From a virus (lineage: Duplodnaviria > Heunggongvirae > Uroviricota > Caudoviricetes), in the IMG/VR virus record IMGVR_UViG_3300037454_000941, positions 1 to 64,000 of that record: DNA of 64,000 nt; one strand, given 5' to 3'. The position numbers were made by a program, and so were the translations under genes. Position 1 is the first letter of the stretch. The number at the start of each line of letters is the position of its first letter. Shown piece after piece: positions 30,574 through 61,591 of the stretch. The notes below the pieces were generated by a model that worked only from the letters and a program-made list of their open reading frames with translations, ran no database searches and was not told the DNA's origin.

Positions 30574-30790
30574 CCGTTAAATCATTTCGCACAATTATGC
30601 ACAATGCCTAATTGAGCTAGTGATTTCCTGCTTCAACGACCTGCACTGTTCTTGTGTTTCGAAGAACTGTAACCTCAAGTCTTTGGGGCGCGGTTCGGAA
30701 CCGCTACCTTCCTCCGGGCATTCACCCGGAGGGCAAGCTGCCACGGCGTAACTCGCCGCAGTCTGCTGCGTGGCGTAACCAAGCAACCAC
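30574..30790 (-). ncRNA. Predicted IS607 omegaRNA scaffold overlapping the tnpB 3' end; guide AACCCATTGACACACCGG...
   Basis: TnpB omegaRNAs are known to be encoded in the right end; GAAGCAGGAA motif present; 5' boundary approximate. Confidence 0.55.
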
Positions 30791-31947
30791 AAGCCATAGA
30801 AACGCAAGTTCCTGGCTGCATTTACATCCCTGTCGTGGTGGCAGCCACAATGTGGGCAGGTCCACTCACGGTCAGTGAGCTTCAAATCTTCTTTCCTGTA
30901 GCATCCGCATTCGGAACAATACTGGCTGGACGCATAGAACTGAGGAGCCTTTACCAGCTTGATACCGAGCCACTTGCACTTGTATTCAAGCTGGGTGGCT
31001 ATCCGGTTAAAGTTGGCATCGAGAACAGCCCCGGCAAGTTTCCTGTTCCGGCTCATGTTCTTCGGTTTCAACGACTCTATTACGAGCATCTTCGGTGCCA
31101 GTTTCCTAGTCAACGAAGTAGTACACTGATGAGCCGAGTTGATGCGGATGTTTGTTATCCTACGGTGCAAGTCAGCCACCTTGCGTATGGCCTTCTTGCG
31201 GTTCTTGGAACCTTTCCTTCTGCGGGAAATCTTCCTCTGCCAGCGTTTAAGACGCTGCATGTGGCTCTTGTATGCCTTCGGATTGGTAATCACTTCGCCG
31301 AATGAGGTGATGGCTAAATCCTTGACACCGAGGTCAACACCGACAACATCGTATTCGTCGTCGGTAATCTCGACATTCTCGTAGAGAGGGATGATGTCTG
31401 TCTTGTAGGCGAACGAGACGAACCAATGCGAGCCTTGTCTCGATACGGTAGCCATCGGGATAGGTACCTTGTCGGAACCGTCCGGTATTGGGATGTAGTC
31501 TTTCTCCTTGAGCTTTACCTTGCCGAGTGACGGCAACTGAACGAAATCCCTTCCGATATAGACAGAGCCGGTCAACCGGAAAGAATCCAGTTCACCGAAC
31601 TTGTGAAATTGCGGGTGCTTGCCGGTTCCCTTGAAGAACTTCTGCCATGCTGTTCCGAGGTCCCGGAGCGCTTCCTGGCCACAGCACTTGGACAGCTCCA
31701 TCAGCCACTCATTACCTTCCAGGTGCTTGTATTCAACCCATTCCCGGTGCCAGTCGATAGGAGAGCCGAGCTTACATTTTGGCTTCTGACCTTCCGGCGT
31801 GTTCTCCTTGGCCAGTTCGTAAGCCTTGTTCTGCTCGGCGAGCTTCCAGTTGTAGGCGCGTCGTGCGGCAGCACAGGACCGGAAGCACTTCCGTTCCTGT
31901 TCCTTGGTGAGCCGGAGCTCTATCTTTCTGCCGCACTGTTGTTCCAT
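30595..31947 (-). CDS. tnpB: TnpB RNA-guided endonuclease (IS607 type)
   Basis: RuvC D (VGVDLG), E (VIESL), D (DRDVNAARN); CxxC zinc finger. Confidence 0.95.
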   Translation of the reverse strand: MEQQCGRKIELRLTKEQERKCFRSCAAARRAYNWKLAEQNKAYELAKENTPEGQKPKCKLGSPIDWHREWVEYKHLEGNEWLMELSKCCGQEALRDLGTAWQKFFKGTGKHPQFHKFGELDSFRLTGSVYIGRDFVQLPSLGKVKLKEKDYIPIPDGSDKVPIPMATVSRQGSHWFVSFAYKTDIIPLYENVEITDDEYDVVGVDLGVKDLAITSFGEVITNPKAYKSHMQRLKRWQRKISRRRKGSKNRKKAIRKVADLHRRITNIRINSAHQCTTSLTRKLAPKMLVIESLKPKNMSRNRKLAGAVLDANFNRIATQLEYKCKWLGIKLVKAPQFYASSQYCSECGCYRKEDLKLTDREWTCPHCGCHHDRDVNAARNLRFYGLWLLGYATQQTAASYAVAACPPGECPEEGSGSEPRPKDLRLQFFETQEQCRSLKQEITSSIRHCA

Positions 31948-32651
31948 TACATACCTTCTATTTCCATTACTTCACCAATAGGTTTTCCTACATACGCTTG
32001 CTTAAATTCCTCGCTTTCCGCGATTTTCTTATATCTATCTCTAATAGACTTTTGACGATTCTTCTTGCTTCTCTGTCCATAGAGTTTCGCCGAGAACACG
32101 GTAATCAGCGATAGCATGTCCTTTACCAGGTCGGCCTCAAATGATTCCTCCAGGACTTCCTCGACATATTCAACAACGACCCCGTGGGACCGGAAGTATT
32201 CGACCAGGAAGTTGTAATTGAACCGGGTCAGCCGGTCGTAGTGCTCGATGACCAAGCGGTTAAACTTATGCTCAGCGGCATCGCGCATCAGCTTCAATAG
32301 CTTCTTGCGGTTGTCGTTCAGACCGCTGCCCACCTCGTCAACTACCGGACCTACCGTATAGTGCTTCTCGGCGCAGTATTCCAGTACCCGCAGCTTCTGC
32401 CGTTCAAGCTCGCCCTTGGTCTTCTGTTCGGCGGAAGACACCCGGCAGTAGACGGCAGTAAGGTCCGGCCTGGCCTCGACTTCCTCGTCCTCCTTCATCA
32501 GACGGCGAAGTTCGTCCTCGTCATACTTGCGGTTGGCTGTAGGCGTAGCACGGTAGGGGTGTAATCTTCCCTGTTCTACCCACTTGACAATCGTGTTCCG
32601 GTGGATGTCGAGAATCTTGCATGCCTCACGACTTCTTAGCTTCTTCCCCAT
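31947..32651 (-). CDS. tnpA: IS607 serine-recombinase transposase TnpA
   Basis: N-terminal MerR-like HTH, catalytic YCRVSS, GSGLN, DRLTRF, FSAKLYG; TAATG coupling to tnpB. Confidence 0.95.
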   Translation of the reverse strand: MGKKLRSREACKILDIHRNTIVKWVEQGRLHPYRATPTANRKYDEDELRRLMKEDEEVEARPDLTAVYCRVSSAEQKTKGELERQKLRVLEYCAEKHYTVGPVVDEVGSGLNDNRKKLLKLMRDAAEHKFNRLVIEHYDRLTRFNYNFLVEYFRSHGVVVEYVEEVLEESFEADLVKDMLSLITVFSAKLYGQRSKKNRQKSIRDRYKKIAESEEFKQAYVGKPIGEVMEIEGM

Positions 32652-32829
32652 CTTCCACCTCGTCTTCCATTTCGATACCGAGCAGCTTGGCGTTCTCGTC
32701 GAGGAGCTTCTGGAACTCCTCCACGGTAGGCACATAATCCAGCTTGAGGACCATCGGCTGGATAGTACCGTCAGCCAGTTCAAACTCGTCCTTGGTGACT
32801 CGCACAACCTTCATACGATTTATCTTCAT
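32626..32829 (-). CDS. Small acidic ORF inside IS607, upstream of tnpA
   Basis: 67 aa, AGAGGA RBS, overlaps the tnpA start. Confidence 0.65.
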   Translation of the reverse strand: MKINRMKVVRVTKDEFELADGTIQPMVLKLDYVPTVEEFQKLLDENAKLLGIEMEDEVEDGEEAKKS

Positions 32830-60037: not shown

Positions 60038-60084
60038 TGAAATAATTGTTGATAATGTTGATAAAATGTGTAAAAGTATTTGAC

Positions 60085-61539
60085 AAATAGGCGGTCGCAA
60101 GCTCACGCCCTTTAGGGCGTGGGTAAGACCCGCCGTAAGGAATGCAAGAAATAAATTACATACAAGAGTCGCTAAATAATATTATATTTGAGATAAGATG
60201 TTATAAACTTTAATTGAAGTCAAGAAATTTATCATGGAAGCAGTAAGAAGCGAAGATACGAAGGCCAAGATACGGGCAAGCATGTCCGCCACGAAGGCCA
60301 GACGGCAGACCCAGGTCTGCCGTGTATTCGAGCTTAAAGTTTCCATAAGGCATAACCCTAAATCGGTGTTCGAGAAGATGTCCCAATGCTTCAAGGAGAC
60401 GAAGTGGGTAATCAATGACATGCTATCGTTGTCCAAGAATAATCCCGACAATAGCATGTTCGACTACAAGTATACCGAACACAAGGATGTAGTACATTAC
60501 GACAAGGACAATAACCCAGTTCATTCTCCAATCACCTTGCCGTCGGTGCTTCATCGAGCGACAGTTGCCCAGAAGAAGACCGACATAGTGAACTTGGCCA
60601 AGGCCAAGGCACATGGAAGAAAGATTGGCGCATTGAAGTTCAAGCGGCAAGTGGACTGCATACCTATCATCACTGGGTTCACGCAGATTATTGATGGCTG
60701 CAGGATAACCATACCGGGGTTCAAGAAGATCCGGGTCAACGGACTGAACCAGCTTCACCAGTTCGAGAAATTTGAAATAGCCGATGCCAAGTTGGTTCGC
60801 AAGGCATCCGGTTATTATGTGAAGATTAGCATAATGCTACCGAAATCATCAAGGAACCCTACCAACCGAGAGGTCGGGCTTGATTTCGGTATAAAGGATT
60901 CCATAACGACATCAAACGGCGACAAGTACACCTGCAAAGTGCAAGAATCGGAACGCCTGAAGTACCTTTCACGAATGTTGAACAGGCACAAGACAGAGAA
61001 GGGTTCCAAGCGGCGATGGAGATGTAAGTGTCAACTGGCCAGGGAATATGAACATTTGGCAAATAGACGGAAGGATATTGCCAACAAGATATACCATGGG
61101 CTGGTAACCGATTACGATGTTATCTACTTTCAAGATGAGCAGATTAAGAACTGGCAGAAAGGGTTGTTCGGCAAGTCCGTACAGTCTTCCTGTCTAGGTT
61201 CGTTGAAACAACGACTTGTCGCTCTCGAAGCGAGTGGGCGTAGTTTCAAGATTTCTAAGTGGGAACCCACCACCAAGCTATGCCCGATGTGCGGTTGTAT
61301 CAACCATCCTACACTTGCTGATAGAATTTATAAGTGTGGTTGTGGGTATATTATGGACAGGGATATCCATTCTGCTCGTGTAGTCTTGATGATTGGCTCG
61401 TCTAAAAGAGCCGAGTGCGTGGAACACGCCTCCGCTGAGGTAGCCACCTCTATGCCTCCTGGTTATACTGGGTTAGCACAAGCGGCTCCGTTGAAGCGAA
61501 AACTCGAAGCTCACCGCCTTTAGGCTGTGGGTAGTTCAC
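60085..61539 (+). mobile_element. IS200/IS605-family tnpB-only element; inferred TAM TTGAC, right end TTCAC
   Basis: Left hairpin CTCACGCC-CTTTAG-GGCGTGGG; right hairpin CTCACCGCC-TTTA-GGCTGTGGG then TAGTTCAC. Confidence 0.85.
60234..61523 (+). CDS. tnpB: TnpB of a divergent clade (RuvC-II reads FQDE instead of xEDL)
   Basis: VGLDFG, IYFQDEQIKNW, PTTKLCPMCG...CGCG..DRDIHSA. Confidence 0.9.
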   Translation: MEAVRSEDTKAKIRASMSATKARRQTQVCRVFELKVSIRHNPKSVFEKMSQCFKETKWVINDMLSLSKNNPDNSMFDYKYTEHKDVVHYDKDNNPVHSPITLPSVLHRATVAQKKTDIVNLAKAKAHGRKIGALKFKRQVDCIPIITGFTQIIDGCRITIPGFKKIRVNGLNQLHQFEKFEIADAKLVRKASGYYVKISIMLPKSSRNPTNREVGLDFGIKDSITTSNGDKYTCKVQESERLKYLSRMLNRHKTEKGSKRRWRCKCQLAREYEHLANRRKDIANKIYHGLVTDYDVIYFQDEQIKNWQKGLFGKSVQSSCLGSLKQRLVALEASGRSFKISKWEPTTKLCPMCGCINHPTLADRIYKCGCGYIMDRDIHSARVVLMIGSSKRAECVEHASAEVATSMPPGYTGLAQAAPLKRKLEAHRL

Positions 61540-61591
61540 AAGCGATGGATAAAAAGTTAAATTAAAACCAAAGAAACCAGCGAGGAAACGT

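Follow-up and report, generated by a model that had tools for sequence, protein, structure and literature searches.

Three TnpB-encoding transposons in one 64,000-nt stretch of phage DNA (the whole of which is hereafter called the window), an IS607-family element (T1) and two of the IS605 type (T2 and T3), each carry the word TATAAAC in sense orientation inside their own boundaries, at 32847-32853 (minus strand), 40583-40589 and 60202-60208 (both plus strand), as the preliminary description had reported. With somewhat better than even confidence, and from sequence evidence, we read these elements as phage-resident transposons that combine a likely late-promoter word with a neighboring host-type promoter, with predicted late expression, cutting and copying by recombination. 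It is the placement of a likely late-promoter word beside a host-type promoter that leads us to predict late expression in infection; a sigma factor encoded by the phage would recognize the box in the elements, TnpB would then cut insertion-free copies of the site that its element occupies, and gene conversion by the recombination machinery of the phage would install the element there. Few targets would be open to it, namely siblings from whose genomes the element has been lost and very close sister strains. What is understood of how TnpB works comes from cellular replicons. The cutting of vacant TAM-adjacent sites by TnpB is established, as described in PMC10055086.

A probable late word and a host-type word in the phage genome

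The box had been defined by about ten copies ahead of structural genes, a count that does not hold in the window, whereas the link to structural genes does hold genome-wide. The window contains nine TATAAAC copies, of which three are internal to the transposons; no Pfam or PHROGs match was obtained for the genes directly behind the other six exact copies, one of which is the insertion site of T2. When the expected frequency was estimated from whole-window shuffles, the mean was 4.33 copies and 7 of 100 shuffles reached nine; the window count being thus not significant, this test of the box was dropped and tests on upstream regions were used instead. Genome-wide, TATAAACT occurs in 19 of 117 upstream regions against 0.2 expected (antisense, 3), and in 14 of 115 against 0.36 expected once the IS regions are masked. 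TATAAAC also stands upstream of the first gene at all seven TnpB loci of the 224-kb record (0.17 expected), and the box pattern is wider than the three elements initially singled out.

Among orthologues, a late word precedes 20 of 34 structural genes and 10 of 76 replication genes. At 183 non-IS box sites the -35 region is unconserved, and A is enriched 6-8 nt past the box. The word shares with the T4 gp55 late promoter TATAAATA, as described in PMC2988020, an 8-bp TATA box, the lack of -35 conservation, a purine 6-8 nt downstream and a location before virion rather than replication genes; it differs from it in the word itself (TATAAACT) and in an RpoD-like sigma. The TATAAAC word is likely, as judged from its genomic placement, to behave like a late promoter. 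The box also precedes the SSB and NrdD genes, and none was found within 220 nt of the major capsid gene in five of five records. The phage encodes a sigma70-family sigma of its own (genome 98629-99417) that scores as RpoD-like, with two matched stretches; a gp55 assignment was dropped for this gene, its profile match being RpoD-like and not classical gp55.

A 16-mer shared by T2 (40570-40585, plus strand) and the region ahead of gene 20294-21403 (minus strand) had been correctly located and interpreted as a late signature. It proved to be an instance of another promoter class, the host sigma70-type word TTTGCTA[CT]AT, which has 25 copies in the genome, and is found before replication genes (38 of 76 replication orthologues, 0 of 34 structural ones). 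Promoters here may resemble those of Fibrobacter. No late box precedes gene 20294-21403, whose labeling as an M16 peptidase corresponds to a Pfam match that falls below the cutoff (E 7e-4).

Architecture of the three elements

Table 1. Positions of the transposons, their parts and related features in the window
Feature	Coordinates	Strand	Remarks
gp47-like gene	9592-10728		PHROGs
Shared 16-mer, host sigma70-type promoter word	21421..21436	-	Ahead of gene 20294-21403
gp46-like gene	21481-23982		PHROGs
UvsW-like gene	28143-30059		PHROGs
T1, autonomous IS607-family element	30574..32930	-	Preceded by AGGG; right end ...GATTTAACGG
TnpB of T1, 450 aa	30595..31947	-	RuvC D/E/D intact
IS607 serine-recombinase TnpA, upstream of tnpB	31947..32651	-	NF033518, 188.6 bits, cutoff 110
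67-aa ORF opening the T1 operon	32626..32829	-	Also conserved among IS607 relatives
Late-type box TATAAACC inside T1	32846..32853	-	Just downstream of host-type TATATT (within 32855-32863)
Late box of gene 39758-40468	40495..40502	-	Contains T2 TAM TTTAT (40497-40501, +)
T2, non-autonomous IS605-type element	40502..41969	+	TAM TTTAT
Host sigma70-type promoter TTGACG-17-TACATA	40554..40582	+	-10 part overlapped by 16-mer 40570-40585
Late-type box TATAAACT inside T2	40583..40590	+
Structured 5' leader of T2	40597..40692	+	Fold z -3.4 to -4.6
TnpB of T2, 423 aa	40693..41964	+	RuvC D/E/D intact
Predicted T2 guide, flank past right end	41970..41989	+	From known omegaRNA layout
Non-coding miniature element, T2-like ends	44176..44372	+	After TTTAT in late-box variant
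T3, non-autonomous IS605-type element	60085..61539	+	TAM TTGAC (60080-60084)
Late-type box TATAAACT inside T3	60202..60209	+	Downstream of conserved host-type TATATT (within 60182-60190)
TnpB of T3, 429 aa	60234..61523	+	RuvC-II QDE, Q at canonical catalytic E
UvsX-like recombinase	61592..62899	+	PHROGs

Left ends of IS607 elements follow AGGG (six) or GGGG (four) in 10 of 10 insertions, right ends finish in CGG, and a loose end of T1 was seen at 30573. The T1 box TATAAACC recurs in four autonomous relatives (L040, L074, L081 and L086), and the small ORF that opens the operon gave no family match. In T2-type elements the left end follows TTTAT in nine of nine cases, a TAM shared with ISGst2 TnpB2 (PMC10055086), and loose ends of T2 were observed at 40497 and 41969. 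The late box into which T2 is inserted is restored by the first base of its left end, and of eight T2 insertions in records that use the box or are unassigned, six lie within the complement of the late box (p about 0.02). Counterparts of the T2 host-type promoter in L037 and L038 read TTGACG or TTGACA-17-TATATT, and TATAAACT or TATAAGCT is kept in all nine close T2 relatives (73-98% identity). Within the T2 leader, one arm of potential pairing lies in a hairpin at 40604-40614 and the other at 40665-40675, in the loop of the terminator-like hairpin that spans 40656-40684; this complementarity is found in three covarying versions, and the leaders had no match in Rfam. A T4-like early-transcript stem hiding the T2 start codon was also predicted but is lost in 73%-identical copies, and is not relied on here.

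T3 splits a predicted uvsX promoter, TTGACA-17-TAAATT, at its -35 box; left ends of its family follow TTGAC in 10 of 14 cases. To our knowledge, phage-adapted TnpB clades, including the QDE-type family of T3, are biochemically unexplored. The canonical RuvC-II glutamate is missing from T3, all 16 members of its family read QDE, and nuclease activity of T3 is, on this sequence, uncertain; conserved rearranged RuvC sites of other clades are thought to be active (PMC10691335). The dN/dS values of tnpB (0.02-0.19 for T1 against its relatives, 0.06-0.09 for T2 and 0.04-0.13 for the T3 family, leaving out those of L089, which look frame-shifted) indicate that the TnpBs are under purifying selection. 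Right-end hairpins are present in the IS200/IS605 elements T2 and T3, with right-end fold z values of -2.9 for T2, -1.3 for T1 and -0.8 for T3. RNA contigs from four metatranscriptomes were short, low-depth pieces carrying no strand or start information, and in four further runs the coverage was confined to portions of the elements, with no joint across them seen.

Empty alleles, guides and repair

Insertion-free sister alleles with both a TAM and a guide match were found for two T2 relatives, one with a perfect 20-nt match (the L109/L110 empty allele) and the other with 2 mismatches in 20 nt (G017). No such target was found for T1, T2 or T3 among the loci compared; at the empty uvsX site of L071-L073 the TAM is kept and the guide region has diverged. 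Because the guides fit no phages beyond very close sisters, broad phage-versus-phage competition is unsupported. One may then suppose that the late promoter is real and serves only retention in a single phage lineage, by restoring copies lost through excision during replication, with no meaningful spread or competition. Retention is a demonstrated role of TnpB (PMC10055086), and it agrees with guides that fit near-identical sites only (a seed-matched, TAM-adjacent match for 2 of 53) and with TAM-bearing empty alleles in 2 of 28 junction tests. We nevertheless judge this explanation unlikely, given precise presence/absence alleles between phages whose flanks are 95-96% identical, and given that PF01797 found no Y1 TnpA for T2 and T3 in the 59%-complete record, so that excision may be rare. 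Y1-like ORFs were seen in G018, G010 and G024.

In the favored reading, late-expressed TnpBs would cut vacant sites for the phage to repair. Homologues of UvsX, UvsW, gp46 and gp47 are encoded in this genome; of the repair genes originally listed only UvsY could not be upheld, its candidate ORF ending at 30064 having no Pfam, PHROGs or NCBIfam match. The elements share with the IS200/IS605 and IS607 TnpB-omegaRNA systems ISDra2 and ISGst2 (PMC10055086) their TnpB matches, the left-end TAM, hairpin ends and, in T1, a serine TnpA, as well as a predicted course in which vacant sites are cut and then mended by homologous repair. Unlike those systems as described there, they have close relatives that were found in phage-like contexts only, and they carry a late-type box, often a kissing-loop leader and, in T3, the QDE motif. 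The homing endonucleases of the T4 family (I-TevI, I-TevII, I-TevIII, segB and mobE; PMC2988022) likewise possess middle or late promoters of their own and leader RNA structure, employ repair of the UvsX, UvsY and gp46/47 type and spread in mixed infection. As described in the same source, however, they recognize DNA through protein and are not transposons, whereas here a flank-derived RNA guide, acting by a short match plus TAM, is predicted. If wired to the phage late program, the elements would be RNA-guided counterparts of the T4 homing endonucleases, in which it could be tested whether TnpB spreads between genomes or merely repairs its own loss. The tnpB of cyanophage A-1(L) (bioRxiv 10.64898/2026.02.14.705889) is also phage-borne; it is identical to host copies, and the accessible portion of that report describes no phage promoter adaptation, while noting induction during infection and homing as a possibility.

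Promoter words in related elements and phages

Close relatives of the elements were found only in phage-like DNA. As a host-chromosome control for the box, neither a GTDB-wide scan with T3, which gave two loci, each with phage-like flanks, on contigs of 266 and 317 kb, nor a search of 401 Bacteroidaceae genomes with T2, which gave relatives (E <= 1e-60) in three, all 41-42% identical, yielded a close copy. Matches to T3 in cultured phages were all under 60%, the plasmid matches listed for T1 showed an identity of about 37-39%, Pfam searches with 101 proteins flanking 32 loci disclosed no clear host-chromosome context, and neighbor-gene searches for the T1 and T2 sites returned no relatives.

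In 22 phage records, in which neither elements nor phages are independent samples, 27 of the 38 elements that reside in box-using phages have the box (the strict box being absent from 11) against 11 of 34 elsewhere (Fisher p=0.002), an enrichment that persists when TnpB families are stratified (p=0.008). In other phages the corresponding position is taken by TATAAATA or by the host-type -10 words TATATT and TACATT; one of two T3 relatives in TATAAATA phages has switched to TATAAATA, which occupies the box position in contig 52 of G026. In the complete non-using phage G018 the boxes have decayed, 2 of 13 being retained. These comparisons support phage-late adaptation of the elements, and suggest that related transposons tend to lose or swap the box in phages using another word.

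The three TnpBs had been considered unrelated and independently convergent. Their mutual identity is 25-32%, and the upstream regions of T1, T2 and T3 follow three separate designs; the idea of independent convergence nevertheless holds only in part, because a promoter-leader cassette is common to several TnpB lineages, a single boxed leader occurring in at least five families. Probably the box was gained several times and, in addition, was passed among transposase-less elements within a cassette of promoter and kissing-loop leader. Such sharing raises the question of whether the box is a passenger, that is, a host alternative-sigma word or a piece of an inherited promoter-leader cassette, not kept for late timing. 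T1-family TnpBs of 90-95% identity do bear different cassettes, and the 11 boxed elements of non-using phages compare with 0.8 expected, among them that of G023 (a 44.6-kb record), which is separated by dS 0.58 from its closest sampled relative. This account appears distinctly improbable in view of the position-matched losses and replacements, including the TATAAATA switch, the different upstream designs, the lack of the box in 40 of 40 distant relatives and in the Bacteroidaceae-genome relatives examined, and the co-occurrence of a related phage sigma with box use (7 of 10 box-using records, 0 of 8 non-using). That the box is instead an infection sensor, through which elements in prophages or other phages fire on superinfection by a sigma-carrying jumbo phage and move more easily into its replicating DNA, is very unlikely: the retained boxes of G023 and ten other elements, the presence of the same TnpB families in unrelated phage groups (several at 91-96% identity) and the T2 insertions in late-box complements agree with it, but boxes decay in G018, and in non-using phages the boxed elements lie closer than the unboxed to the copies that box-using phages carry (p=0.008, in a set including two unclear records), as recent arrival alone predicts.

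With the late-expressed, site-cutting transposon as the preferred reading, a promoter word that varies with the resident phage would be a natural marker of an element's residence time in a phage lineage, and could predict the late promoters of uncultured phages. A wider picture, which we offer tentatively and consider possible rather than probable, is that of a TnpB transposon community specialized on large lytic phages, whose promoters are retuned to the resident late sigma, whose kissing-loop cassette is traded between unrelated nuclease lineages, whose insertions tend to fall in promoter boxes that the element ends repair, and whose members would act as RNA-guided gene drives between co-infecting sisters. 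The miniature element of Table 1 has as its target the late-box variant TATAAATC (minus strand), ahead of gene 42357-44147.

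Promoter words of the phage

The first 64 kb of the source record make up the window. The record spans 223,861 bp (59% complete according to CheckV) and encodes T4-like sheath, tube, portal, capsid, terminase, DNA polymerase, UvsX, UvsW and gp46/47 proteins, as well as a sigma factor (table). Genes were called with a purpose-built dicodon model, start sites being approximate. TATAAAC had been proposed from the window as the late box of structural genes. Its count there is a poor argument (9 copies, a number reached in 7 of 100 shuffles), but genome-wide 19 of 117 upstream regions hold TATAAACT, where 0.2 would be expected, and masking the IS regions leaves it in 14 of 115; the TATAAAC-type word is clearly non-random across the whole genome. 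A second promoter class, TGCTATATT, is of similar abundance genome-wide. We scored orthologues, which are non-independent, in 11 records over the 220 nt preceding the operon head, counting TATAARCY-type variants or TATAAATA as the late word. This word precedes 20/34 structural vs 10/76 replication orthologues, and the second-class word precedes none of the 34 structural and 38 of the 76 replication orthologues. The capsid gene had no box within 220 nt upstream in any of the five records scored, while the SSB and NrdD genes do have one upstream. Across 183 non-IS box sites there is no -35 conservation and A is enriched 6-8 nt past the box, the same layout as in T4 late promoters (PMC2988020).

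The boxes inside the three TnpB elements T1 (32846-32853, minus), T2 (40583-40590, plus) and T3 (60202-60209, plus) are present as described, and so is the 16-mer of T2 (40570-40585, plus) that recurs at 21421-21436 (minus). The 16-mer, taken in the preliminary description as a further link to late expression, belongs to the second class; since it overlaps TTGACG-17-TACATA in T2, it is evidence for a host-type, not a late, promoter.

In the window genome, four genes have a third promoter-like word, TAGTTT, 6 nt ahead of their ATG (TAGTTT-type upstream sites include window genes 39001-39696, 8019-9530, 24096-25721 and 51048-52175); it may represent a further promoter class. Behind a late box lies an ORF of 2184 aa (window 44445-50999); like two GC-rich ORFs of ~520 aa (window 33464-36633), it gave no Pfam or PHROGs match. 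The major capsid gene (genome 94023-95507) has a partial second copy of 238 aa 5 kb downstream (100720-101436). An ORF from ~140960 (G000 numbering, locus L005), just before the tRNA cluster and absent from the gene calls, has its own TATAAACT at 140921 and looks, by eye, like an HNH-type nuclease.

TnpB elements and their leaders

TnpB elements, their miniatures and the phage sigma factor
Feature	Numbering	Position	Strand	Description	TAM
T1	window	30574-32930	minus	autonomous IS607 element	
T2	window	40502-41969		IS605-type without transposase	TTTAT
T3	window	60085-61539		IS605-type without transposase	TTGAC
Miniature	window	44176-44372		non-coding T2/T3-type derivative	
Miniature	window	~55180-55308		non-coding T2/T3-type derivative	
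Miniature	genome	200756-200805		non-coding T2/T3-type derivative	
Miniature	genome	205375-205427		non-coding T2/T3-type derivative	
Sigma factor	genome	98629-99417		scores RpoD-like, sigma70 family	

All seven TnpB loci of the record carry TATAAAC at most ~125 nt from their first gene, against 0.17 expected by resampling. The RuvC D-E-D triad is intact in the T1 and T2 TnpBs. In the T3 TnpB, Q replaces the catalytic E, QDE being invariant in 16/16 family members; as rearranged but conserved RuvC sites are regarded as active in other clades (PMC10691335), it may be active. Where computable, dN/dS against relatives is 0.02-0.19. Both window miniatures lie at TTTAT within TATAAATC late-box variants. 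The IS607 elements of loci L040, L045, L078, L105, L106, L108, L111 and L112 contain extra cargo ORFs of 1-2 kb in the tnpA-tnpB interval.

The claim that three lineages converged on the box holds in part. The upstream designs differ (an operon with a small ORF in T1, a 100-nt leader in T2, a spacer of 24 nt before the start codon in T3), so the box was likely gained separately in each. However, one cassette, consisting of the box, two hairpins with complementary loops and the ATG, is common to many transposase-less elements of other families. In a search not requiring complementarity, the loops were complementary in 24/24 leaders, with 13 loop versions, vs 1/510 cross pairs; in an alignment of 22 sequences whose rows were chosen for pairing, pairing in the loop-loop helix is 100%, with both sides changed in 8 of its 9 pairs. 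The T2 leader is of a related yet distinct design with three covarying versions, and T1-family TnpBs 90-95% identical to each other are found with differing cassettes. The leaders matched no Rfam family. In phage record G025, a kissing-loop leader precedes a divergent RuvC-type protein outside the TnpB profile (32273-33568, minus), with a host-type promoter upstream and no late box.

Box and resident phage

We compared 21 of the 28 relative-bearing records (G003, G011, G015, G019, G022, G027 and G028 were left out), which with the window's own gave 22 records and 83 TnpB-like ORFs, three of them, under 300 aa, being dropped. According to box use in non-IS upstream regions, 10 records are users and 8 non-users (four of the latter classed on as few as 4-16 upstream regions); two more use TATAAATA, and another two are unclear. 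Elements in users carry the strict box in 27 of 38 cases, those in non-users in 11 of 34 (Fisher p=0.002, one match outside its element removed; p=0.008 when stratified by TnpB family), p-values that are indicative only, as records were sampled because they carry relatives and the elements are kin by descent. The case for promoter adaptation is stronger than first claimed. The unclear records have the strict box in 4/6 elements. In alignments the box is exchanged for other words at the same position: TATAAATA in a T3 relative on contig 52 of G026, a phage with TATAAATA in 21/156 upstream regions and TATAARCT in none, and TATATT or TACATT in two families of G018, a complete non-user. A homologue of the window sigma factor is found in 7/10 users and 0/8 non-users, with a profile that detects only relatives of its source sigmas.

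Against tracking, the 11 boxed non-user elements far exceed chance (0.8), G023 (44.6 kb) still has the box, with its nearest sampled relative at dS 0.58, and a T3 relative in G007, the second TATAAATA phage, is unswitched. Among non-user elements, those with the box lie nearer to copies from user or unclear records than those without it (p=0.008), which fits recent arrival; however, for four of the boxed ones the nearest such copy is just 37-77% identical. Neither a GTDB-wide scan with T3 nor 401 Bacteroidaceae genomes searched with T2 yielded a close host-chromosome copy, and the box was not found in 40/40 distant relatives, some of which lie behind tnpA with their promoter region outside view. 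The complete phage G018 (215 kb) lacks the core genes of the window phage; it holds a Y1 transposase as well as 13 TnpB elements, and could supply transposase in trans.

Insertion sites and possible homing

TnpB is established to cleave vacant TAM-adjacent sites (PMC10055086), and homing endonucleases of T4 bring promoters of their own, middle or late, along with leader hairpins, and need UvsX-type repair (PMC2988022). A review names co-infecting phages among possible targets of transposon homing (PMC13565253), a cyanophage tnpB is induced on infection (10.64898/2026.02.14.705889), and phage-borne TnpB is mentioned solely near CRISPR arrays in the accessible parts of PMC12607003. Among titles and abstract openings, mostly outside the subscription literature, we found no publication dealing with TnpB elements that carry a phage late promoter. 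The late-box TnpB transposons are a real feature made up of known parts, TnpB transposons with T4 homing-endonuclease regulatory logic; their late expression, cleavage and homing are predicted.

Insertion-free alleles were sought at 28 junctions. For the T2 relative in G017, the precise empty site is seen in L109 and L110, two near-identical loci, with flanks 95-96% identical, the TAM kept and a perfect guide match over 20 nt. The empty site for the T2 relative in G020 lies in G017; it has kept the TAM and differs from the guide at 2 of 20 nt. In a third empty site the TAM is gone; a fourth match was a self-artefact. The guides of T1, T2 and T3 found no target among the loci compared. The proposed competition with co-infecting relatives is less well supported than first claimed. 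The uvsX site of T3 is empty in three relatives, with TTGAC retained and the guide region diverged. As intact TAM and guide matches occur only in near sisters and the guide has diverged at the empty uvsX site, any TnpB drive would act only on close sister genomes.

The TAMs overlap promoter words. T2 is inserted in a late box, which its left end restores, and AGTTTAT precedes 6/8 T2-type insertions outside G018, the intergenic background being ~0.16-0.42 (p about 0.02 if 0.33 is taken); the T3 insertion divides the predicted -35 box of uvsX. This coincidence may reflect survival bias to intergenic sites. At L027:2793-2850 a T3-type element is nested at TTGAC in a T2-type left end, this TTGAC being the -35 box of the latter.
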